A stretch of 61,982 nucleotides of DNA, counting the filler, from Squatina squatina (taxonomy: Eukaryota), in the NCBI GenBank assembly GCA_031763465.1. It is 3 parts of 3 records of this genome, joined end to end, with 100 filler letters (N's around TTAATTAATTAA, not from the genome) between each part and the next. Parts side by side here need not be neighbours in the genome. Positions count along the whole stretch, not along the records: positions 17,107 to 45,620 come from JARFOE010000192.1; 2 more parts are not named here. The stretch is one strand, 5' to 3'. The translations under genes and the position numbers were made by a program. How positions within the stretch are numbered: position 1 is the first letter of the stretch; each line of letters opens with the position of its first letter. Of this stretch, positions 7,850-42,037 are shown piece by piece. The notes under the pieces were generated by a model. That model did not search any database and was not told the DNA's origin. It worked only from the letters and a program-made list of their open reading frames with translations.

Positions 7850-7979
7850 CTCCGACAGTGCGGCGCTCACTCAGTACCGCCCCTCCGACAGTGCGGCGCT
7901 CACTCAGTACCGTCTCTCCGACAGTGCGGCGCTCCCTCAGTACCGCCCCTCCGACAGTGCGGCGCTCCCTCAGTACCGT
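7850..7979 (+). repeat. 33-bp tandem repeat (about 4 copies, runs into gap)
   Basis: Unit ctccgacagtgcggcgctc(a/c)ctcagtaccg(c/t)c(c/t), directly visible. Confidence 0.95.
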
Positions 7980-18401: not shown

Positions 18402-18748
18402 NNNNNNNNNNNNNNNNNNNNNNNNNNNNNNNNNNNNNNNNNNNNNNNNNNNNNNNNNNNNNNNNNNNNNNNNNNNNNNNNNNNNNNNNNNNNNNNNNNN
18501 NGTTGATGCTTCACACGTGCCTCGTCCGATCCCTACTTCAGCTCACCCTATTAGCATATCCTTACTCCCGCATGTGTTTATCTAGCTGCCCCTTAAATGC
18601 AGCTTGGGAATATTTGGGTTAAGTTCTAAAAAATCACTTTTGAAACACACTCTCTCCCACCCTGTGCACTTTCAATGTCACCATTGTAACCTTTCAGACA
18701 CACGGATGGAAATGAAGTCAGCTCAAAGCAGACCTCTGGTTTGCTCAC

Positions 18749-19109
18749 CTGTAAGAAGTAGGAGTGGAGTGGGTTTTCCTTATTGTCTTCATTGTAGTAG
18801 AGACCACCAACTACAAAGATCTGGTTTTGCTTCGTCACCAGGCTGGCGTGGTTTTTGGGAATCTTACTGGAAACGGAGGCAAAGTAGCACTCATTGGTTG
18901 TGGGGTCATAGGCCACAGTGGCCTCTTCGTTGATCATGAAGATCAGGTCTTTCACGAACATGCCAAACCGCAGGTTTTCATTCAAGATGGCCGGGGCCAG
19001 CTCTTCCCCCTCCTTCGCAGCTTCCCCGCTAGTTGCGTCCCCTCCATCTTTCGTCCCTGCGTCTGACTTCTCTTTCTTGGTCTTTGCAGGGGGCTGCTTG
19101 CCCTCCTGG
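18749..19109 (-). CDS. KLHL40: Kelch-like protein 40, 3' part of large first coding exon (5' part lost in gap)
   Basis: PAILNENLRFGMFVKDLIFMINEEATVAYDPTTNECYFASVSSKIPKNHASLVTKQNQIFVVGGLYYNEDNKENPLHSYFLQ ending at a CAG|gtgag donor; matches KLHL40/41, and the neighbouring HHATL favours KLHL40. Confidence 0.88.
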
Positions 19110-19568: not shown

Positions 19569-19740
19569 CCAATGCCCAGTCGGAAAGGCGTGCCACCAGC
19601 TTCAGGTCTGAAGGTATGGTCAGAATGTAGAGGTAATGGAAGAAGACATCCACGATGATTATTACAGCAAGGTGCGCTAAAGCATACTTCCTGATGTTCC
19701 ACATCTCATTGTCTTTCCGAGTGAACTTCGGTTGGTTTAT
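19569..19740 (-). CDS. HHATL: Hedgehog acyltransferase-like (MBOAT) internal exon
   Basis: cag|INQPKFTRKDNEMWNIRKYALAHLAVIIIVDVFFHYLYILTIPSDLKLVARLSDWAL G|gtaggt; the FFH.YILTIPSDLK motif is HHATL-typical; in frame with exon 20407-20616. Confidence 0.9.
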
Positions 19741-20406
19741 CTGTGAGACACGAGACTCAGAATAAAAGAACTTCAGGAAACAGGAAACGTCATTAGAGGT
19801 CAACAAGCCCAAACCCTTTTGATCGATCTTAACTCTCATCCACCCACCTTTGCACCATAGTCTCGATTTTACAATGAGGTACAATCTGAGGCGGACATGC
19901 TCGTGGCATGGGACGTTAGACCCACGTTCTGAGATATTAGTTCCGTNNNNNNNNNNNNNNNNNNNNNNNNNNNNNNNNNNNNNNNNNNNNNNNNNNNNNN
20001 NNNNNNNNNNNNNNNNNNNNNNNNNNNNNNNNNNNNNNNNNNNNNNNNNNNNNNNNNNNNNNNNNNNNNNNNNNNNNNNNNNNNNNNNNNNNNNNNNNNN
20101 NNNNNNNNNNNNNNNNNNNNNNNNNNNNNNNNNNNNNNNNNNNNNNNNNNNNNNNNNNNNNNNNNNNNNNNNNNNNNNNNNNNNNNNNNNNNNNNNNNNN
20201 NNNNCAACATTACTAGATTATCTGGCCATTATCACATTGCTGTTTGTGGGACCAACCTGTGTCGCGTTTCCTACATTACAACAGTGACAAAATTTCAGAA
20301 GAACTTCACTGGACGTAAAGTGTTTTTTGGACGTCCTGAGGTGGTGAAAGGAGCTATATAAATGCAAGTCTTGCTTTAATCACCAAGGCGTTGTTTTAAA
20401 GCTTAC

Positions 20407-27856: not shown

Positions 27857-29070
27857 ATGACGATGAGCAGCCTTAGCTTGGAGGGGGCCTCCAACAGCTC
27901 CAGCGACTATGGCGAGGATTATAACTACACTGATATTGACTTCACTCCCTATCTTCCTTGTGCGAAGGATGAGGTTACTGCCTTTGGGAAGATCTTCCTC
28001 CCAGTCCTGTATATCACGGTGTTTGTTTTCGNNNNNNNNNNCTAATCCTCATGATAATTAAGTACCTCAAGTTGAAGACCATGACTGACATCTACCTGCT
28101 GAATTTGGCCATCTCCGACCTTCTGTTTGTCGTGTCCCTTCCCTTTTGGGCCACCTACGTGACCTCAGAGTGGATCTTTGGAAATGCCATGTGTAAAATA
28201 ATAAGCGCCGTCTATAGTGTGAATTTCTACAGTAGTATCTTCTTCATAGCCTGCATGAGTTTGGATATGTACCTCCAAATCGTCCACACCGTCTCCATGA
28301 AGAACTATAGGACAATCAGCAAGAGCATTGTCATCAGTGCTGCAGTTTGGACCCTGGCAATGGTCGTTTCAATCCCTGAACTCATATTCAGTCAGTCCAG
28401 GAAAATTGGCGATAGGTACACCTGCCTCAGTCACTATGGCGACGAGCAACTGGTCATCTGGAAGACAACCATACAACTCCAGGTCAACATCATCGCGTTT
28501 ATCATTCCATTCTTTGCCATGGTCTTCTTCTACGCTCNNNNNNNNNNNNNNNNNNNNNNNNNNNNNNNNNNNNNNNNNNNNNNNNNNNNNNNNNNNNNNN
28601 NNNNNNNNNNNNNNNNNNNNNNNNNNNNNNNNNNNNNCATGGTCTTCTTCTACGCTCGGATTGCCTCTGTCCTGCTCAAGTCCAGATCCTTTGGCAAGGA
28701 CAAGGCCTTAAAACTGGTCATCATATTGGTCACCGTGTTCTTCGTCTTGTGGTTCCCTTACAACATTGTCCTTTTCTTGCATTCCCTGGAAGACCTCGGC
28801 GTGATTGGCAACTGCGAGATGAGCAAGAGGCTGGATTACGCCTTGCAAGTAACAGAGTCTATCGCCTTCACCCACTGCTGTTTCAATCCACTCCTCTATG
28901 CTTTTGTGAATGAAAGGTTTCGGAGACACCTGAAGAGTATTCTGCTGAAGATTGTTCAGACGACCGGCTGTAACAAGGAACTGCGGATTAAGATACCCAC
29001 TGCAGAGCGTAGTGAAACCAGCAAGCAGCAATACTGCATGTATTCTGACGTGGAAATGACTGTGGTTTAG
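27857..29070 (+). CDS. ACKR2: Atypical chemokine receptor 2 (D6/CCBP2), single coding exon interrupted by two assembly gaps
   Basis: 7TM chemokine receptor: [46 protein letters not shown] (D6-like DxYLxIVH), [26 protein letters not shown]. Lies between HIGD1A and CYP8B1 as in human. Confidence 0.9.
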
Positions 29071-29569
29071 TAGTGAGTTCAGAAAGGGTATTGGAGACAC
29101 AATATCGATTAGAATTCAGTTTTCTTGCTTCAAATCATGTTGAATTGGATTTTCTCAAAGATATTATAACTTGTCAGTATGCACTGAGCGCTTGTGAACT
29201 ACTATTCAAACTAACCCAACCAAACCACAGTGAAACACGTCACCTTATTATTACCTAAAGGGAGTAACCTCCACTTCCTAGAAATTCTACCAAACACTGA
29301 AACGCCCATATCATGTGGGACACCATTCCATGCACCGATTGCAACAAATTAGACATGTGTCCTCCAGTCTAACCTACTTCGTTCTTTCCCAGGCCTTGCC
29401 TTACTCGGTCTTCGCTCACCCNNNNNNNNNNNNNNNNNNNNNNNNNNNNNNNNNNNNNNNNNNNNNNNNNNNNNNNNNNNNNNNNNNNNNNNNNNNNNNN
29501 NNNNNNNNNNNNNNNNNNNNNTGGGATGTTTTACCACGTTAAAGGCGCTATATAAATACAAGTTGTTGT

Positions 29570-29815
29570 TGTAGTCCTGCAATTTTTCCCCTTCGAGTAC
29601 TTATCCAATTCCCTTTAGAAAGTTACTGTTGAATCTGCTTCCGCTGCCCTTTCAGGCAGCGCGTTCCAGATCACAACTGGCTACGTAAAAAAAACCTCTC
29701 CTCTCTCCCCTCTGGCTCTTTTGCCAATTATCTTAAATCTGCATCCTTCGCTTATCGACCCTCCCGCCAGTAGAAACATCATCGTCTGATTTTCTCTATT
29801 AAAACCCCCTTATAA
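29570..29815 (-). mobile_element. CR1 3' fragment
   Basis: Similar to 43480-43720 (ccctttcaggcagc..ttccag..cccctctggctc..ttgccaattatcttaaatctg). Confidence 0.6.
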
Positions 29816-30088
29816 TTTCCTATAAGGCTTTTCTCACGCCCTCAGGAAGTCCTAAAGCGCTTCTTTTCAGCCAATTAAGTTCTTTTGGAAGTGTTGTAAA
29901 TTAGCAAATTTGCACGCAAGATCCCACAAACAGCAATGTAATAAATGACCAGATAATGTGGTTTTTTTTGTTAAAAAAATAGAGTTAGTGAATGCATTAA
30001 ATAGTGAGTGGTGCAAATATTACTTGGAATTTGTTAACAGGTAAGTGTGTGTGTTAAATGGGTAAATTTTTGCAATAAGACATTGCCA

Positions 30089-30396
30089 AGGGTGACCAGA
30101 TTTTAAGATTTCCAAACCGGGACCAAGTTTGCACGCGCAGTCAGGTCTCCGTCGAGTCTGCGCGCCTGGAATTGGGGCTCAGTTGTGATGCACAGTCAGG
30201 GTTCCGTGGAGACTGTGCGCGCGCAGTCAGGACTCCATCCACGTGGCCCATCAGTTCTCCAGTGAGTCTGCGCGTGCTCAGTCGGGGCTCCGTCTCTCGC
30301 TCGCTAGAAACCGGGACATTTTTATTTAAAGCAACTTTCGGGCAGTTGTCGGGACACCGGGACATTTGCTGAAAAGCCAGGAGGTCTGGTCACCCC
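30089..30396. mobile_element. hAT (Blackjack-like) MITE about 30 bp downstream of the CYP8B1 stop
   Basis: 11-bp perfect TIR gggtgaccaga / tctggtcaccc, repeated subterminal ccgggac motifs, internal gcgcgcagtcagg repeats; no clean 8-bp TSD. Confidence 0.65.
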
Positions 30397-30424
30397 TCAG
30401 TCATTGGGCAGGGGATGAGCCAGT

Positions 30425-32107
30425 TTAAAATCTCAGGCGGTATTTGAACTGTATGTCGTGGGTGGGCTGCATGGTGCCGAATCCCCAGCGGCTCCTGTCT
30501 ATGGGCGGGATTTCCTCCTCGGGGTCGAGCAGCTCGAACTCGAAGTGGCTGAGCATGAGGAAGATGAACTGCTTGAGCTCGTTGGTGGCGAAGAAGCGGC
30601 CGGGGCACATGCTGACGCCGGCGCCCCAGGGCATGTTGTAATACTTGAGGCGCCGGCCGGCCTTGTAGAAGTCGGTCTTGCGGCTGCCGTCCGGGTTGAG
30701 GAAGCGGTCATACCGGAAGGCTTGGGGCTCTGGGTGGATCTCGGGGTCCATCTGGGCCGAGAGGTAGGGGAAGAGGGCCAGCCGGTCGCCCCGGCGCAGG
30801 GCGTAGCGCCGGCCGTCGGCCACGGCGAGGGTGGTGTCGCGTTGCACGGCGCGGATCAGCACCGGCGCGGTGTTCAGGCGCAGGGTCTCCTCCACCGCGC
30901 TGTCCAGCACCGGCGTGCCGAGCAGCATGTCGCGGGTGAGGTTGATGGGCGGTCCTCCGGCCGCTGGGGGCGCCGCCTCTTCAGTGTCGCGGGTGAGGTT
31001 GATGGGCGGTCCTCCGGCCGCTGGGGGCGCCGCCTCTTCAGTGTCGCGGGTGACGGGCGGTCCTCCGGCCGCTGGGGGCGCCGCCGCCACTCGCTGCCCG
31101 CTCCGGCGCAGCACCCGGTCCACCTCGTCGCGCACGGCCGCCAGCGCCGGCGGGTTGCGCAGCAGGTACAGCAGCAGCCAGAAGGCCGAGGCGCCGGTAT
31201 TGCTCTGCGAGGCCCAGAGCAGCATGAACATGTAGCGGTTCTGCATGGCGGGCGGCACCCGCTGCTCGGACATCTGCTGCTGGCGCTCCCGGATCCAGCC
31301 GCTGACATTGTCCCGCTGCTCCTCGTCCACTGACAGCAGCCGCCAGAACATTCTCCTCAGGCGCTCGGCCTCCGCCTTCTCCGCCGGCGGCAGCACGGAG
31401 TAAACCAGGCGCGGGAAGAGGCGGTCGTACCGCCTGAAGTGGGCGAACAGGTGCTCCGATTGCTCGCGGTCCCGCTGCTTGGCCGCCTCCCGGTCCCGCT
31501 CGCCGCCGTCGCCCCGGGTGGGCTGGTTACCGAACAGCGAGAGGTAGCCGGCCCTGAAGACCGTGTTATAGCAGAAGTGGAACAAGCCGTCTTCCTTCCA
31601 CCGCCTCCCGCCGCCTTCCTCCTTCTCCTCCTGGCCCGAGCCCAAGCCGTGCAGCATCAGGTTCTGCAGGTTGTTCATCATGGCTTGGGTGAGGTCGACC
31701 AGCCCGTCGCCCATCAGGTGCTTGACGTTGACGCCCGCCATCAGTTTGTGGTCGTCGCCGCTGGTGTGGTAGCCGAAGACCCGGGCCACCAGCTCGGCGG
31801 CGAACTTTTTAAAGTCCAGCGTGGACCTCGACTCCTTGACCACCGCCCCGAACGAGAGCGGGTCCATCAGGAACGTGAAGTAGTAGCCGGCGAGCTGGAC
31901 CGTGAAGACGTCCCCGTGCTTCCGCTGCATGTCCAGCAGGAACTGTGCCGTGTCCCTCCTGAAGGACAGAATGTGCCCGAGCCAGGGCAGGTAGCCAGCA
32001 TCTAAAGGTGGCTCGTTGGGGCGCCTTCTTCTGAAGACGCCCAGGTAGTAAAGGATGGTGAGCAGAAGGATCAGCAGAGACAAGAGAGCAGACAGCAAGT
32101 AAGCCAT
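30425..32107 (-). CDS. CYP8B1: Sterol 12-alpha-hydroxylase, cytochrome P450 8B1, intronless, 560 aa
   Basis: N-terminal TM anchor MAYLLSALL..., RRRPNEPPLDAGYLPWLGH, I-helix LWASQSNTG, EETLR (ExxR), heme motif PWGAGVSMCPGRFFA. Intronless and convergent with ACKR2 as in human. True ATG at 32107, not the ORF-track start. Confidence 0.96.
   Translation of the reverse strand: MAYLLSALLSLLILLLTILYYLGVFRRRRPNEPPLDAGYLPWLGHILSFRRDTAQFLLDMQRKHGDVFTVQLAGYYFTFLMDPLSFGAVVKESRSTLDFKKFAAELVARVFGYHTSGDDHKLMAGVNVKHLMGDGLVDLTQAMMNNLQNLMLHGLGSGQEEKEEGGGRRWKEDGLFHFCYNTVFRAGYLSLFGNQPTRGDGGERDREAAKQRDREQSEHLFAHFRRYDRLFPRLVYSVLPPAEKAEAERLRRMFWRLLSVDEEQRDNVSGWIRERQQQMSEQRVPPAMQNRYMFMLLWASQSNTGASAFWLLLYLLRNPPALAAVRDEVDRVLRRSGQRVAAAPPAAGGPPVTRDTEEAAPPAAGGPPINLTRDTEEAAPPAAGGPPINLTRDMLLGTPVLDSAVEETLRLNTAPVLIRAVQRDTTLAVADGRRYALRRGDRLALFPYLSAQMDPEIHPEPQAFRYDRFLNPDGSRKTDFYKAGRRLKYYNMPWGAGVSMCPGRFFATNELKQFIFLMLSHFEFELLDPEEEIPPIDRSRWGFGTMQPTHDIQFKYRLRF
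30928..31085 (-). repeat. In-frame 57-bp coding minisatellite (about 2.8 copies) inside CYP8B1
   Basis: Units begin at 30928, 30985 and 31042 (tgtcgcgggtga...); the third lacks 6 bp; encodes AAPPAAGGPP(INL/V)TRDTEE. Confidence 0.95.
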
Positions 32108-32607
32108 GTCGCTGGATGTTGCTGTGCTTCGACAAGCTGAATACCCAAATCGGTAATGCCTCACAGGCTATGTGGTCTCGCAACTCTTTGCCACACTGTG
32201 CTGTGGGAGGAGTTCACTTGCCCGTTCACTATTGCAATAAAAAAAGTCTGTTATGAAATAAACTCCCTGCAGTAAATTTCCAAAGCCCATTTCACAATGA
32301 CCCTCTGTGATGCACACAAACACAAAAGCTTCCAACCTCCCTGAATTTCCTCAAAGGGACTTCAGTCAAATTTTAAAGCAAGAGGAGCATTTAAAGGTAA
32401 GACGGCTCATAAGCGAAGTCAAAAATTATTGCAGCCTTTGCAAAGGAATCCTGACTGGTATACCGCCAGCTGCCGCAAACAGCTGAAGGAAGCTACTACG
32501 GGAAGATCATCCAAAAGTGCCATTAATTAGGTATTTGGCCCAAGCATGCATGCCAGAAAATTCATACCAAGCCCCCCTCCTCTAATGCTACTTCTCCAGG
32601 TCAGTGG

Positions 32608-33865
32608 GATAAATCTTCATTTAGAAAGGCACGGATTAATCAAGGACAGCATGGATTTGTTCAGGGAAGGTTGTGTCTGACTAACTTGATTGAATTTTTT
32701 GAGGAGGTTTGATGAGGGTAGTGCGTTTGCTGTAGTCTACCTGGATTTTAGCAAAGCTTTTGAGATCCAAGATGGCAGACTGGTCATGAAAGTAAAAGCT
32801 CATGGGATCCAGGGCAAAGTGGCAAGTTGGATCTAAATTGGCTGAGAGGCAGGAAGCAAAAGGTAATGGTCGATGGGTGTTTTTGTGACTGGAAGGCTGT
32901 TTTCAATGGGGTTCCGCAGGGCTCGGTACTACGTCCCATGCTTTTTGTGGTATATATCAATGAGTTAGACTTGGATGTAAGGAGTCTGATTAAGAAGTTT
33001 GCAGATGATACAAAAATTGGCCGTGTGGTTGATAATGAAGAAGAAAGCTGTGGACTGCAGGAAGATATCAATGGACTGGTCAGGTGGGCAGAACAGTGGC
33101 AAATAGAATTCAATCCGGAGAAGTGTGAGGTAACGCATTGGGGGAGGGATAACAAGGGAATACACAAATAGTAGGACACTGAGAAGTGCAGAGGGGTGTT
33201 GGAGTGCATGTCCACAGATCCCTGAAGGTAGCAGGACAGGTAGATAAGGTGGTTAAGAAGGCACATGAAATACTTGCCTTTATTAGCCGAGGCATAGAAT
33301 ATAACTGTATAAAACACTAGTTAGGCCACAGCTAGAGTACTATGTGCAGTTCTGGTCACCACATTACAGGAAAGATGTGATTGCACGAGAGAGGGTACAG
33401 AGAAGATTTGCGAGGATGTTGCCTGGACTGGAGAATTTTAGTTATGAGGAAAGCCTGGATGGACTGGGGTAGTTTTCCTTGGAACAGAGGAGGCTGAGGG
33501 GAGACCTAATTGATGTCTATTAAATTATGAGGGCCATAGTGGCTAGGAAGGACCTCTAATCCCCTTAGCAGAGGGGTCAATAACCAGGAGGCATAGATTT
33601 AAAGTAATTGGGAGGAGGTTTAATTGAGATTTGAGGAGATCCAGAGGGTGGTGGGGGTCTGGAACTCGCTGCCTGAAAGGGTGATAGAGGCAGAAACACT
33701 CATAGTATTTAAAAAGGACTTGGATATGCATTTGAAGTGCCGTAACCTACAAGTCTACAGGCCAAGTGCTGGAAAGTAGGATTAGTCTGGATAGCTTTGT
33801 CGACCAGTACGAACATGATGGGCCAAATGGCACCTTCTGTGCTGTAAATTTCTATGATTCTATAC
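32608..33865 (+). mobile_element. CR1 LINE, RT domain to 3' tail (5'-truncated, frameshifted)
   Basis: LTNLIEFFEE, YLDFSKAF, GVPQGSVL..LFVVYINELD, KFADDTKIG, QIEFNPEKCEV; tail ttctatgattctat. Confidence 0.92.
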
Positions 33866-33869
33866 TTTC

Positions 33870-34060
33870 ACTTGCATTCCACTCTTACCTATCCGATTGT
33901 AGCCAGAACATATCCAGCAATGTCTTCTCTTCTTGACCCTGCACCGTTATTTCTGGAGTCCCCCAAGGATCTATCTTTGGCCCCCATTTCTTCCTCATCT
34001 GCATCAGGCCCCTTGGTCATGTCTTCGAACGACATGGGGATCAATATCCACTTCGATGCC
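33870..34060 (+). mobile_element. L2 LINE RT fragment
   Basis: HSYLSD.SQ...SGVPQGSIFGP motif. Confidence 0.55.
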
Positions 34061-34097
34061 AGCTCTGCTGCTCCATAATTTCCTCCAGTTAAAGATG

Positions 34098-35170
34098 TTT
34101 TATTATTAATTCACGGATGTGGCCGTCGCAAGCAAGGCCAGCATTTATTGCCCATCCCTAATTGCCCTTGAGAAGGTAGTGGTGAGTCCCCTTCTTGAAC
34201 CACTGCAGTATGTGTGGTGCAGGGACTCCCACAGTGCTGTTAGGGAATGGAGTTCCAGGATTTTGACCCAGCAACGATGAAGAAACGGCAATATACTTCC
34301 AAGTCATGATGGTGGGTGACATGGAGGGGAACTTGGAGGTGATGGTGTTCACATGTGTCTGTTGCCCTTGACCTTCTAGCTGGTAGAGGCCGTGGGTTTG
34401 GGAGGTGCAATCGAAGAAACCTTGGCGAGTTACTCTTTTGAGTAAAAACATATAAACAAATAAACTAAAAACCAAAGCTTAACAAAAAACCCCGATACTT
34501 AAATTAAAACCCGATTGTCCCCAGTGAGGATGCACTCCAGTCCCCGCGGCGCCCACCGGTCACGGAAGGCCTCGAGCGTACTGGTGGACACCGCGTGCTG
34601 CATCTCCAGGGACACCCGGGCGCAAACGTAGCCGCGGAAGACAGTCGGGGTAAACAACCCCCTTGATAACCCGCTGCCTGGACCTGTTTATGGCCAAGTT
34701 GGCCAGGCCCAGGAGCAGGGTCACGAGGAGAGCCTCCAACCGACCCACTGTCCCCTGCACCAGGTGCCCAAAGATCAGGAGGGTGGATACCTTGGCAAGT
34801 TGCTGCAGTGCACCTTGTAGTTGGTACACACTGTAGCCACTATGCGCCGGTGGTGCAGGGAGTGAATGTTTAAGGTGGTGGATGGGGTGCCGATCAAGCA
34901 GGCTGCTTTGTTCGATCTTCTTAAATGTTGTTGGAGCTGCACTCAGCCAGGCAAGTGGAGAGTATTCCATTACTCTCCTGACTTGGGCCTGGTAGATGGT
35001 GGAAAGACTGAGGAGTCAGGAGGTGAGTCACTCGCGACAGAATACCTCGCCTCTGATCTGCTCATATAGCCACAGTAGTTATGTGGCTGGTCCAGTTAAG
35101 TTTCTGGTCAATGGTGACCCCCAGAATGTTGATGGTGGGAGATTCAGCGATGGTTATGCCATTGAATGCC
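34098..35170 (-). mobile_element. CR1-clade LINE 3' end (interrupted by Tx1-like insertion)
   Basis: MEYSPLAWLSAAPTT motif; tail ggccagcatttattgcccatccctaattgcccttgagaagg. Confidence 0.7.
34432..34788 (-). mobile_element. Tx1/L1-clade retrotransposon 3' end with 13-bp TSD
   Basis: LLIFGH...LLLGLANLAINRSRQR...DCLP / GYVCARVSLEMQHAVSTSTLEAFRDRWAPRGLECIL; flanked by accttggcgagtt (34419-34431) and accttggcaagtt (34789-34801). Confidence 0.75.
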
Positions 35171-35189
35171 AAGTGGAAGTAGCGCGAAT

Positions 35190-35982
35190 GTTACTTGGGA
35201 AGACCAAAGCCATCGTCTTCAGCCCTCGACACAAACTCAAGTTCTTTTTCCACCAATTCCATCCCCTCCATAGCCAAACTCTCAGGCTAAACCAGACTGT
35301 TTGAAACCTTGGCGTCCTATGTGCCCCTGAGCTGAGCTTCTGGCCCCATATCTCTGATGAAGACCACCTACTTATACCTCCATAACATTGCCTGCTTCTG
35401 CCCCTACCTCGGACCATGTGCTGCCTTTGTTTCTTCAGACTCAACTATTTCAATACTCTCCTGACTGGCTTTTCATAAACTTCAACCCATCCAAAAGCCT
35501 GCGGCTTGTATCCTACCTCATACCAAGTTCCACTCAGCAATCACCTCTGTCCTCACAGACCAACATTGGCTTCCAGTTCTGACACTTCCAATCTAAAATT
35601 CTCATCCTTGTGTCTAAATTCCATCATGATCTTGCCTCTCACTATCTCTGTAATCTCCTTCAGCCCTACAACCTTCCGAGATGTCTGCGCTCCTCCAATT
35701 CGTGCCACCTGTGAGTCCACGATTTTCGTTCTTTCCAGCATTGTCGGCCGTGCCCTCAGCTGCCAAGGCCCTAACCTCTGGAATTCTCTCCCTAAACCTC
35801 TCCCAACTCTCTTTCCTCCTTTAACATCTCTTTAAAACTTACCTCTTTGACCCAGCTTTTAGTCGTGCCTCCTGACATCTGTTTCTTTGGCTCGGTGTCA
35901 ATTTTCACCAGGTTATGCCTCTGTAAAGTGCCTTGGATGTTTCCCACAATAAAAGTACTATATAACTGCAAGGTGTTGTTCT
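35190..35982 (+). mobile_element. L2 LINE 3' end
   Basis: GKTKAIVFSPRHKL, VGRALSCQGPNLWNSLPKPL, tail tataactgcaaggtgttgtt. Confidence 0.75.
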
Positions 35983-37394
35983 TTTGGGCACTTGCGGATC
36001 ACGGATGCATCTGTGCATCTGAATGGTGAGGCCTGAGTTGCCCCTGACACTGGGCCTTATATCCATGGAGAGCAACAGGTAGATCGTTGGCAAACTGCAA
36101 TTGGAGATCGGGCCGCTCGGATGCCCGGAGCAGCTCCCGGGTAAGTGTTGAAGGGGGGTGATGGGGTCGGGCAGGTTGCGGGCAGCGGGGGCGCGGGCTG
36201 CAGTGTCCCACATTCTTTCAACGTAATTTACCTGCTCCTCCCAGCTCCACATGCAGGTAAATATATTTTAAGAACTCACCTTGTTGGTTGAAGCTGAATA
36301 GGCGGTCCCTTTAAGGACTGCCTGTTAGGTCGCCTCAGGCTTGGTTTTACTGAGTGCAGGCAGTGCTGGCTGTCTCAGGGCAAACAGTCTTGCAGTGGGG
36401 TCCTCAAATGGGTTCGGGCCTGAATTCGCATATGTAAAGGTCCCAGCAAAAGGTCATTAACCTGAAACGTTAACTCTGTTTCTCTCTCCACAGTTGCTGC
36501 CTGACCTGCTGAGTATTTCCAGCATTTTCTGTTTTTATATTGTAACAGTCCTGAATGGCTGCTTCAGGCGTGAGCACAGCACTGATTTTTTGGCCTTTAC
36601 GACCAGTATGCCACATGGCGCACTTCCACAGGGACATAGGGACAGGAGGAGGCCATTGAACCCCAGAAGCCTTGTCCACCATTCAGTGAGATCATGGCTG
36701 ATCTGTGACCTCACTCCATATACCCACTTTTGGCCCATATCCCTTAATACCTTTGGTTAACAAAAATCTATCAACCACAGATTTAAAATTATGGAGCGAC
36801 TCCTGCACAAATTTAAAACATAATGGGCAAATTTTAAAAATTACGTTCACCAGCTCCGCAGTCAAGAGCCCCCAACCACACTAGCTTGCCAGAAAAGCAT
36901 TTTTAAGCACTCAGTAATTAGCATCATCGTTCTCCTGCGTTAATCTGCATTTTCCTGGGACCTTAAACTCCTGGAACTCATTCCCTCCCTCAATCCTCCC
37001 TTCCTCTGACAATCTACAGGTGTTTAAATGCCGAGCTTGGGGTCACCTCACCTCTCGTCCCTTCTCAACCTGTGAAGAGCCCTTTGCTCTTCACTCCGCA
37101 TTGTCAATTTCAGAACAATGAACCTATTTTGTCACTTGTCAGGGTTGTCAACACGGGAGCTGTTCGGAGAAACGTCTGACCAGAAGCACTGAGGCAGATT
37201 ACAATCCCGTTTCAGACAAGTGGCTCATACCTGTGGTGCATTCACACAATTAATAAAGTAAACTACAAATGAACAAGATTTCTTTTTATCCACTTCTTCA
37301 TTCCTCATTTTGGGAAGTCCGCCAACAATAAACAAAAAAAACACGAACTGTGCATGCGCAACGACTTCCAGATTGTTGGCAGCAGTCGAGTCTT

Positions 37395-39520
37395 TAAAAT
37401 GAACAATTGATCCAGCATCAATTGCTGTTTCAGGAAGAGAGTTCCAAATTCTACTACACTTTGTGTGTAGAAGTATTTCCTAATTTCATTCCCGAAAGGT
37501 CTGGCTCTAATTTTTAGGCTGTATCCTCTCGTTCCAGATTCCTCAGCCAGCAGAAATAGTTTCTCTCTATCCACCCTATCTGTTTCCCCTTATTATCTTG
37601 AAAACTTCGATCAGATCTCCCCTTAACCTTCTCTATCCCAGAGAATACAACCCTAATTTGTGTAATCCTCGTAATTTAACCCTTGGAGTCCTTGGTATCA
37701 ATCTGGTAAACCTATGCTGCACTTTCTCCAAGGTCAGGGTATCCTTCCTAACACCCAGAAGTGCTCACAGTACTTCAGGTGTGGTCTAACCAGGGCCTTG
37801 TATAGCTGCAGCATGACTTCTACCCCCTTGTATTCTAGTCCTCCAGATATGAAGGCCAGCATTCCATTCGCCTTCTTGATTAATTTTTGTACCTGCTCTT
37901 GACATTTTAATGATATATGTACATGGACCCCTTAATCTCTTTGAACCTTCACTGCTTCTAGCTTTTCACCATTTGGATCTATCCCTTTCGGGTCCAAAGT
38001 GGATGACTTGCTTATATTGAAATCCATTTTCCACAGTTTTCCCAATTCGCTCAATCTATTAATATCTCTTTGTAGTTTTGTGCTTCCATCTACACTGCTT
38101 ACAATGCTGCCTATTCTTGTGTCAGGCAAATTTGGATATGTGGCTTTCTATCCCATCATTAAGTCGTGATCCATACAGTGAATAGTTGAGGTGCCAAGAC
38201 AGATCCCTGCGGGACACCACTAGTCACATCCTGCCAATTAGCATACCTACCCATTATCGCTCCTCTCTGTCTCCTGCCATTCAGCCAATTTCCTAACCAG
38301 CTCAATAATTTGCCCAGAATTCCATGAGCTTCAACTTCAGCTAACTGTCTCTTATGAGAGACTTTAGCAAATGCCTTCTGGAAGTCCATATAAATAACAT
38401 CCATAGGCATTCCTCTGTCCACTACTTTAGTCACCTCTTCAAAAAATTCAATCAGGTTTCTCTGGCATGACTTACCTTTCACAAATCCATGCTGGCTCTT
38501 TCTGATCAGCTGAAGATTTTCAAGGTGTTCAGTCACTCTATCGTTAACTATAGACTGTCGTAATTTCCCAACAACAGATGTTAGGCTAAGGATGCCTATA
38601 GATGTTAGGTCTATAATTCCCTGGTTTCCTCTGATCTTTCTTAAATAGCAGAGTGACATGGAATTTTTGAATCTAAAGGAACGGTTCCTGAATCGAGAGA
38701 ACTTTGGAAGATTACAGTTAGGGCACCTGCAATGTTCTCACCTACTTTCTTTAAAGTCTTGGGATGAAAACCGTCTGGTCTTGAGGATGTGTCACTCTTT
38801 AGTGCCATTACTTTCTTCATTACTGTTAATTTGCTTATGTTAATTTTGGTGAGTCCCCATCCCTGATTCAGTATTCGTTTCCTTGAGATGTCTGGCATGC
38901 TATTCTCTTCCTCTACTGTAAATTCTGATGCAACGTAATTATTTAACATGTCTGCCATTTCCTTATTTTCATTTATATCAACATTGTAGTTTTTAAGGGA
39001 CCCACATTGCTACTAAGCACACCCTGCTTTTCCTAATAGTAAAAGGTTTTGGTGTTGATTTTGATATCCCGTGCAACTTCTTTTTCATACTTCCTTTTAG
39101 TAGCTCTTACTAACTGTTTTGTCAGCCTTTGCTCTTCTTTGTATCTTTCCCATTCACCATGATCTGTGCTATTTTGGGGATTTTGTATGCTTTTCTTTTT
39201 AGTTTTATGTTGTCCCTTACTTCTTCAGTTGTCCATGGCTGAAATAGAGTTCTTGCTCCTCAGAGGTTTAAATTGGTTCTTTCTCACATTCAATTCTTTT
39301 TTTGAACATCTCTCCCTGATCTCCTGTTGTTTTACCCATCAACAGATTTGCCCAGTTTACTGTGGACAATCCCTGCCTCATCACATTTATGTCAGCCTTA
39401 CCTAAATCTAGAATCTTTGGAGCTGTTTCGCATTTCTGCCTCTCAAACACATTAAACTCAATCATATCATGATCGCTATTATGCGCTGTTAGGCTGTTAA
39501 GTAAATCTGGCTCATTAATA
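37395..39520 (-). mobile_element. CR1 LINE, about 2.1 kb ORF2 remnant
   Basis: HNSDHDMIEF, LNNYVASEFTVEE, RPDGFHPKTLK, SLTSVVGKL, QHGFVKGKSC.RNLIEFFEEVT, YMDFQKAF, SGVPQGSVL. Confidence 0.92.
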
Positions 39521-42037
39521 AATTGACTGAGGCCTGACTCCTTGTTCCTCAACAAATTGTTGTTGTCAACTATCGTAATGAGTGGTTTCTGTGCACCATG
39601 TCGGAAGGCTTGGGAAGCCATTTAGAGCCTGTAAAACGGAATCTGCCTTCCCATATTTTGTAGAATTTGGGCCAGAATTCTCATTTTTGCCCACAGAGAG
39701 AGAGGACAAAAAATGGTGGTTTCTTTTCTCAAAAAGGACACTGTAAAACAGAAAGACAGAATCAAGACAGACAGGCTCCTTTCAAANNNNNNNNNNNNNN
39801 NNNNNNNNNNNNNNNNNNNNNNNNNNNNNNNNNNNNNNNNNNNNNNNNNNNNNNNNNNNNNNNNNNNNNNNNNNNNNNNNNNNNNNTATAGACAACCCCC
39901 ACCTATGTTTTCTGTTCCTTGAGGCTTCTTAGCTCCACCCAGACTGATTCTACATCTCTATTTTCTGCGCCAATATCCTTCCTCACTATTGCATTGATTT
40001 TGTCCTTTAATAACACTGCCTCCCCATATCTATACTATGAATGAACTCCCGATGAACTTTGTGCTCACCGCCAACCATTAGGGCTAAATTTGATAATTCG
40101 GATAAACTCCTTCAGAGCTGCTTTATTTTATTTTCATTCTGATATCGGGATCAATGCATGGCGGTCAACCTTTTAAATAGTATTTGTTGTTCGATAGCTT
40201 TCAATGGACTGACATGCTCTCCGACACAAAAAAGTACTCTACTGGCCTGAGGATGGGAGCACACTGATAATGTGAAGTGCCTGAGAGGAAACAGATGCTC
40301 TTATTGCATTCCATATGCTTTTTAGCTACAGTAGGGAGAATTTTGACTAACTCTTCCCTTGCAAACCAAGCACAATTCTTATGAATCTGATCCCTTTTCC
40401 CTGTGGGGTTTTTTTTTCAGTCTTGTTTAACTGATCCATTTAGTTGGACTAAGGATGTTTAGGAANNNNNNNNNNNNNNNNNNNNNNNNNNNNNNNNNNN
40501 NNNNNNNNNNNNNNNNNNNNNNNNNNNNNNNNNNNNNNNNNNNNNNNNNNNNNNNNNNNNNNNNNCAACATAATAAAAATAGATTATCTGGTCATTATCA
40601 CCTTGCTGTTTGTGGGAGCTTGCTGTGTGCAAATTTGCTGCTCCGTTTCCCACATTGCAACAGTGATTACACTCCAAAAGTACTTCATTGGCTGAAAGCG
40701 CTTTGAGATATCTGGTGAGTGTGAAAGGCGCTATATAAATGAAAATCTTTCTTTCTGAACTTCTGGTCCTCTCCTGCCCTATTTGCTGCGCTATATTTTC
40801 TGTCACATAGTATGAGGAGGACTGTGTGATAGTTTTGGTCAAAGATATACGCTTATGGTGGCTGCTTCCCAGTGCCTCACACCCCAGTGGACTCGAGCGC
40901 CAGTATTTTCTGGCACCAATCTACCAGCAACAGGTTTCCTCCACACCAAAATGCTGCCATTGGTTTAGTCAGATAACCGCACAGTGGGTCGACTTTCTCT
41001 TAATGCAAATATACTGGAAGCTACAGTGATTTTTTTTTTTAATCGGTTCAAATTTGGAGTATTTCAGTGCTCTGAAAAGGGAATTTAAAGCAGAATACTG
41101 CTGATAAGTTTTCACCTAAGCTGGTGTTGTCCCCTTTAAGTTGAATTTTAAAAAATCACTCCTTTTTTGGGATGAACATTTATTTTCCTGCGACAGTGCA
41201 GCTGACATTAAGCCAAAGAAGAAGAAAAAATGAAGTGCTGATGGAATCTGTGGGCTGGATCTCATCTGTGGAAGGAAGGATTTCAGCCAGTGTGGAAATG
41301 GAACAATGTGGGAGGCTCCATAAAACCTTAAGTATGGTTTGGAAAAAAAAATGTTGTAGCAACTGTTGTTTCTATGTTTGAGTTCACATGCTTGAGTTTG
41401 TATGTACATGCTGTTCAATTTGCTTGGCGTTCTAATTCCAGCAGTTTTGGAATTGTATGTGTATTTTAAAAAAGCTTTTATGTAGTTTGGGCTGCGATAC
41501 TTTCACTAACCATGATGAACGACGAACTGCATGTGCAATTCCTGTGCCTAGGACACTATCGTATGTATAAAATGTTCGCATCGTCCAGACAATGCTAAAA
41601 TGTACGTGTACTGCCGTCATACTTGCGCCTATCATTGCAGCACTGACAGCATTTTGGTCTCTGCAAATAGGAAGCTTCACTTACACTGACTGCTTACGTC
41701 ACTGTGGAGCAGCAGACAGGCAGAGCTTCGCGTTTGCATTTTCATCGATTTCCATAGAACACTGCTGACTTTTCTGTTGATAGAAATCAAAACGTTGGAC
41801 CCTGATTTGAGGGGAAAAAATTCTTTTTTTAAAAAAAAAAGGAAAGCGAGGTTAAAACGAGGGCTTTGCACTTTACCTGTATACAACTGTTTCCCAATAC
41901 AAGGCGAATTTAAGTGAAACCACCTCTCGAGTGTTTCNNNNNNNNNNNNNNNNNNNNNNNNNNNNNNNNNNNNNNNNNNNNNNNNNNNNNNNNNNNNNNN
42001 NNNNNNNNNNNNNNNNNNNNNNNNNNNNNNNNNNNNN

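Follow-up and report, generated by a model that had tools for sequence, protein, structure and literature searches.

The window, i.e., the whole stretch of 61,982 nt from Squatina squatina that was analysed here, contains on its minus strand a single-exon ORF of 1683 nt without stops (30425..32107), which encodes a protein of 560 aa and displays a GC content of 66%, a GC3 of 0.90 and a CpG o/e of 0.93, compared to 0.43 across the window. On its sequence, structure match, single exon and motifs, this gene belongs to CYP8B1 (sterol 12-alpha-hydroxylase), as stated in the preliminary description. Using phmmer against solved structures, the best match was human CYP8B1 (7LYX, 542 bits), followed by PGIS (418 bits) and CYP7A1 (330 bits), and among the best 120 of the 786 matches of the homologue search, the top named ones were CYP8B1 and the top single-domain ones shark CYP8B1, with Pristiophorus japonicus coming first. 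In a tree built from 26 selected rows (without paralogues), the Squatina protein nests among shark CYP8B1 with Pristiophorus as sister (support 88/95, below the starred level), a pairing which points to a squalomorph shark, and its tip branch measures 0.23 when compared to 0.15 for this sister and 0.05-0.25 for other cartilaginous fishes. The catalytic motifs are intact, as previously claimed: W298 and N303 of the I helix (31199..31216, minus strand), which the alignment identifies as the equivalents of human W281 and N286, the ExxR motif (E407-R410) and the heme-ligating Cys501 in PWGAGVSMCPG (30605..30607, minus strand, from the alignment) are all present, with an agreement among homologues of 116/117 for W298 and 117/117 for both N303 and C501. 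In the human enzyme, W281 is important in catalysis (PMC9463588, partial text), and CYP8B1 is a single-exon gene in mammals (PMC6296402, partial text). Searching the Squatina squatina assembly with CYP8B1 provided one DNA match and seven protein matches, the six other protein matches being exon-sized pieces with motifs read as those of CYP7A1, CYP7B1 and PTGIS. CYP8B1 was thus detected once in an assembly that may be incomplete, and it appears to be a single-copy gene. Note that simple patterns for TATA, LRH-1 and HNF4 gave no match in the about 590 nt upstream of CYP8B1, a result which is uninformative, and that an AATAAA is located 98 nt past the stop codon.

As for other vertebrate CYP8B1, the neighbours are a chemokine receptor and KLHL40. 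The chemokine receptor (28051..29070, plus strand), identified by its motif at 1.4 kb from CYP8B1, displays DMYLQIV instead of DRY and has its N-terminus cut by a gap; from its position and motif it is likely ACKR2, although the matches listed for it did not include this receptor. The mammalian CYP8B1 locus has ACKR2 as a named member (PMC6296402, partial text), and such a neighbour would support the ancestral location of CYP8B1. Within this receptor gene, a 20-nt duplication across a 100-N gap (28518-28657, with MVFFYA on each side) is an assembly artefact; no other of the 42 N runs has an overlap exceeding 2 nt. On the minus strand, a KLHL40 (KBTBD5) exon with an adjacent peptide was found at 18746-19108 and 19570-19839 (KLHL40 E 1.4e-31), and this adjoining peptide, which we take to resemble HHATL, had no Pfam or PDB match.

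Inside CYP8B1, TRF identified a tandem repeat at 30928-31085 (period 57, 2.9 copies, score 267) that adjoins no N gap and leaves the ORF unbroken, in agreement with the 57-bp unit first described as repeated about 2.8 times in frame. The array, with a GC content of 77%, lies within an N-free stretch (29522-39786, the nearest gaps ending at 29521 and starting at 39787) at a distance of 1.4 kb from the nearest gap. A codon-by-codon reading in the direction of translation gives units of 51, 57 and 48 nt, all in frame and on the minus strand: unit 1 (AAPPAAGGPPVTRDTEE; 31034..31084), unit 2 (AAPPAAGGPPINLTRDTEE; 30977..31033) and a terminal unit (AAPPAAGGPPINLTRD then ML; 30929..30976), which continues into MLLGTPVLDSAVEETLR and holds the ancestral xAGGPPINLTRD entering helix J'. 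All three units have the same 30-nt core. The 6-bp deletion already reported for one copy is found in unit 1, where one substitution, absent from that report, also separates it from unit 2. An exact search of 1.5 Gb with the core 24-mer gave three matches, all within the array, and none for the reversed control; the array is far beyond chance. In addition, the junction 23-mer, with up to 2 mismatches allowed, matched the Squatina squatina assembly only at the two array junctions, which suggests that it is new sequence, such as a copying artefact would not invent. The units are arranged head-to-tail, within the 7 to about 100 nt of minisatellites, in a coding exon and with the frame kept; the repeat is a coding minisatellite, a known kind of element. 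A dispersed mobile repeat was rejected, since no copies exist outside the array in either search (24-mer exact, 23-mer with 2 mismatches) and the unit consists mostly of sequence native to CYP8B1. Folding of the 57-nt unit was not better than that of shuffled sequences (z -0.21), which argues against a hairpin-driven origin.

When compared to orthologues, the net insertion amounts to 41 aa (residues 341-381; 30965..31087, minus strand, with a register that is ambiguous within the repeat), i.e., 123 nt composed of 51 + 57 + 15, close to the flexible insert of roughly 40 aa initially proposed. Among these residues, 25/41 are A/P/G, the net charge is -4 and Lys is absent. The nearest orthologue has 509 aa, and the rest of the length excess comes from changes of +6, +5 and -1 aa elsewhere. 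The spacing between the I-helix Trp and the K-helix Glu (W298-E406) reaches 108 aa here versus 67 aa in 120/124 homologues, with 66 and 68 aa in one homologue each (66-68 aa in 122/124), in an alignment of 125/127 proteins (the two fused models P0002 and P0003 being left out). The Scleropages/Scophthalmus CYP8B1 models P0011 (119 aa) and P0074 (113 aa) display exact internal helix duplications, which are likely errors in public annotation or assembly; the same Scleropages gene has a normal spacing in P0088. This alignment with chondrichthyan and other CYP8B1 bears out the expansion as first described: the insert is absent from 16/16 other cartilaginous-fish proteins aligned (14 named and 2 unnamed), the named rows of which include no squaliform or angel-shark sequence. 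It was likewise absent from all 14 matches of a region search with residues 318-412 and from the 7990 candidates of a search of shorter proteins, and no report of a repeat insert in CYP8B1 was found in the literature searched on CYP8B1, sharks/elasmobranchs, scymnol and P450 coding minisatellites. A PEST degradation signal was also rejected, both candidate segments scoring 0.0 for a criterion of >+5 in our own approximate implementation of the formula.

The structure was predicted with AlphaFold2 from 118/127 sequences (nine fused, duplicated or N-extended ones being omitted), and this model (mean pLDDT 87) superseded an earlier weak one built from 25 sequences (pLDDT 73.9). Compared to human CYP8B1 (7LYX), it gives a Z of 49.6 and an rmsd of 1.6 A over 455 residues, with residues 341-382 unstructured (pLDDT <50). 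In line with the flexibility originally supposed, the insert is predicted to form a disordered loop between helices J (residues 319-335; 31103..31153, minus strand, from the model) and J' on an otherwise normal CYP8B1 fold. Since the last unit holds the ancestral lead-in to helix J', the insert would belong to the J-J' loop and be separated by J' (392-396) from helix K (399-412), which carries the ExxR motif (both helices within 30872..30934, minus strand, from the codon table and the model). The initial placement thus holds for the J/J' region as the proposed reductase site, but not for a position directly before K, because J' intervenes. Indeed, alphaJ/J' is the proposed reductase interaction site 1 (RIS1), with 21-22 residues in class II structures and more than 35 in just 0.5% of entries (PMC3224734, partial text), and it would contain about 62 residues in Squatina CYP8B1. 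It is possible that an insert predicted at this place affects enzyme activity. Note that the J-J' loop varies within the CYP7/8 group: that of human CYP8B1 is shorter by 3 aa, and that of zebrafish PGIS, an enzyme working without reductase, by about 13 aa.

Four sequencing runs were listed as matching, none of them with half of the query words, and the list gave no RNA run with such content, which is uninformative as to expression. One of these runs, X2, belongs to another study and provided 5 contigs at the 85% threshold. Its 81-nt contig (depth 4.41) covers 31004-31084 with 0 differences (81/81 identical), displays the 30-nt core at both ends with the novel junction inside, and contains the 51-nt unit, thus matching unit 1 and the next core. 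As both the 51-nt unit and its novel junction occur in X2, the assembly did not invent the repeat, and the earlier claim of a real expansion rather than an assembly duplication stands. We conclude that the in-frame repeat is real, its exact copy number and the 57-nt unit being those of the assembly; the 57-nt unit was seen only in the Squatina squatina assembly, as the X2 cover misses its junction and the distal part of unit 2 (30977-31003). A second X2 contig of 154 nt (30823-30976, depth 3) has 5 differences, of which T408S, a silent change at A404 and T391I are listed, and these differences show a different haplotype. With about 3% divergence, well above the within-species diversity of 0.002 in the epaulette shark (PMC10587355, partial text), X2 likely represents a related species. 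This run is mixed and thinly covered, since two other pieces are teleost-like CYP8B1 and its shark repeats are about tenfold shallower than those of X1. The latter, also about 3% diverged (46 differences/1558 bases in 8 listed pieces), has no cover over 30765-31763 and therefore says nothing on the repeat, while X3 and X4, with 2 and 4 partial reads less than 90% alike, are uninformative. In a k=31 simulation, an allele with 51-nt units only gave a loop contig of 81 nt without breaks, together with an exit contig having the core as its start (the 154-nt length of which was set by the chosen slice end), and the fully covered allele of the Squatina assembly broke into pieces of 61/49/49/48/135 nt. 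This hints that the X2 array may be differently built than that of Squatina; missing cover or bubble removal would look alike.

Two further loop expansions were observed in CYP8B1, at residues 153-172 (31590-31650, minus strand; SGQEEKEEGGGRRW) and 194-220 (31450-31530, minus strand; GDGGERDREAAKQRDREQ, with a duplicated RDRE). The D-E loop reaches 19 aa versus 9-17 aa in others (n=117), and the E-F stretch 20 aa versus 12-20 aa; all four indels relative to the nearest orthologue keep the frame. The lengthening of two other loops in this GC-rich gene points to slippage tolerated in surface loops, and when loops lengthen gene-wide, tolerated slippage is favoured over a tuning device. On the other hand, the loop length remains strongly conserved among homologues, which suggests constraint, and neutrality is thus not assured. 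Departures from the consensus affect 6/182 highly conserved columns, compared to 1-8 in 15 full-length other cartilaginous fishes and a median of 2 over all rows; at least 6 departures occur in 17/125 aligned rows, and two of the six seen here, G302S and P306A, flank N303. Of the 11 listed differences to X1 and X2, 6 change an amino acid and 5 are silent, numbers too small for strong purifying selection to be demonstrated. Cartilaginous fish typically have scymnol sulfate as their bile salt (PMC3540847, partial text), a compound which bears a 12-alpha oxygen (PMC2977710, partial text), so that a working CYP8B1 is expected.

In our opinion, the repeat is probably an in-frame coding minisatellite by which the predicted J-J' surface loop gains 41 residues, which arose by tandem duplication likely to be near-neutral, and which is tolerated by a likely working enzyme. 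The history of the array would have started with a gain of 15 nt in the loop, after which the GC-rich segment that encodes AAPPAAGGPPINLTRD was duplicated and a few filler bases were newly added where the copies meet, leading to the 57-nt unit, which slippage or unequal crossing-over would then have copied, one copy losing 6 nt. As the gene is single-exon and apparently single-copy, selection for the frame would have let only multiples-of-three changes survive. Since the terminal unit retains the native J' entry, a normal packing is predicted for helices J, J' and K, and the extra units would loop out to the cytosol, possibly with a small reductase-docking cost. The repeat loop is most likely a tolerated oddity of one gene, and what is notable is its site, namely a loop on the reductase side of an enzyme domain, with a conserved length.

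Selection could instead have kept the insert for what it does, if an acidic flexible stretch in the J/J' reductase-contact region lowered or tuned electron delivery and if the array length set the share of 12-alpha-hydroxylated bile alcohols. We find this unlikely, even though the location in RIS1, the rarity of such lengths at this site, the net charge of the insert and a repeat shared with X2 at about 3% divergence would all fit, together with the 81- and 154-nt contigs of X2, which match the expectation for a 51-nt-only allele and hint at a different array. However, the whole J-to-K segment has a net charge of -2, inside the homologue range (-3 to +2), the X2 pattern is equally well explained by missing cover or bubble removal, and loops away from the reductase site were lengthened as well. 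It is just as doubtful that 12-alpha-hydroxylation in a squalomorph shark group is set by a length-variable acidic loop serving as a genetic dial, with 51-nt versus 57-nt arrays in relatives. A relaxed selection on CYP8B1 in this lineage, with the insert as an early sign of decay, has precedents, since some mammals have lost the gene, inactivation being described for naked mole rat, elephants and manatee (PMC6296402, partial text); the four indels, the somewhat long branch, the 6 conserved-column departures and the 6/11 amino-acid-changing differences could be read in the same way. Such decay nevertheless seems improbable for a gene without stop or frameshift, in which all catalytic residues are retained, the GC3 and CpG o/e are as high as given above, and about six independent length changes are all in frame, roughly 1 in 700 if random (a hand estimate, codon-like repeat slippage being biased to threes).

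We regard as very unlikely that the array is wholly or partly a product of the assembly, with a wrong copy number or a wrong 57-nt middle unit. The assembly is fragmented (1,152,659 contigs), the neighbouring receptor gene displays its 20-nt duplication across one gap (1/42 N runs), two of the 124 database homologues (P0011 and P0074) carry artefact-like exact duplications, and half of the query words were reached in no listed run. Nevertheless, X2 independently has a 51-nt unit flanked by two cores, the bases of the junction occur nowhere but in the array, the units are unlike each other, and the array lies 1.4 kb from the nearest gap with a longest exact repeat of 69 nt; even with a wrong copy number, an in-frame insert remains. 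A repeat spliced out as a newly gained intron, leading to a near-normal loop, is the least credible and to be considered highly improbable: with one in-frame GT..AG pair (31090-30977, 114 nt), the loop would still exceed that of orthologues by 3 aa, but by eye its donor (CGA/GTGGCG) is far off consensus and its acceptor has no pyrimidine tract and ends with GAG, and none of the seven in-frame GT..AG pairs gives the exact orthologue length.

Taken as a tolerated coding minisatellite, the repeat can be compared to known systems. The Squatina protein resembles CYP8B1 of human (7LYX, PMC9463588) and of the sawshark Pristiophorus japonicus (P0004, 76% identity in the alignment) by its single exon, fold, W281/N286 equivalents, heme Cys and ExxR, and differs from vertebrate CYP8B1 by the +41 aa J-J' repeat, +6 and +5 aa in two loops and -1 aa near residue 262. 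As in protein-coding VNTRs (Mukamel et al., bioRxiv 10.1101/2021.01.19.427332, partial text), an in-frame minisatellite lies in a coding exon, and the ACAN unit also has 19 aa; however, ACAN and LPA are many-copy repeat domains with proven length variation, whereas the Squatina array consists of 3 units in a globular enzyme domain and in one assembly. The insert also shares its structural site, and the 0.5% class above 35 residues, with P450s having a long RIS1, entries given as biochemically uncharacterised in PMC3224734 (partial text), while the Squatina extension belongs to a well-known family and stems from a recent DNA repeat. Provided that the enzyme is functional, a microsomal P450 would tolerate about three times the usual length at the proposed reductase-contact site, the length of which is otherwise nearly constant from sharks to birds; this bears on P450-reductase docking, and the J-J' loop would become a possible site for tags or fusions. 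In addition, the repeat is a candidate for marking a lineage of sharks. If the loop altered activity, a coding repeat would be linked to bile-salt chemistry, and a length-variable dial, if true, would be a natural experiment showing the extent to which a microsomal P450 can lengthen its J/J' region.

Two other repeats were observed in the window. A 33-nt tandem repeat (7850-7978, 3.9 copies) runs into an N gap, and just beyond the CYP8B1 stop, a short element (30330-30395) matches numerous X1 and X2 contigs whose flanks differ, and is thus a dispersed repeat.
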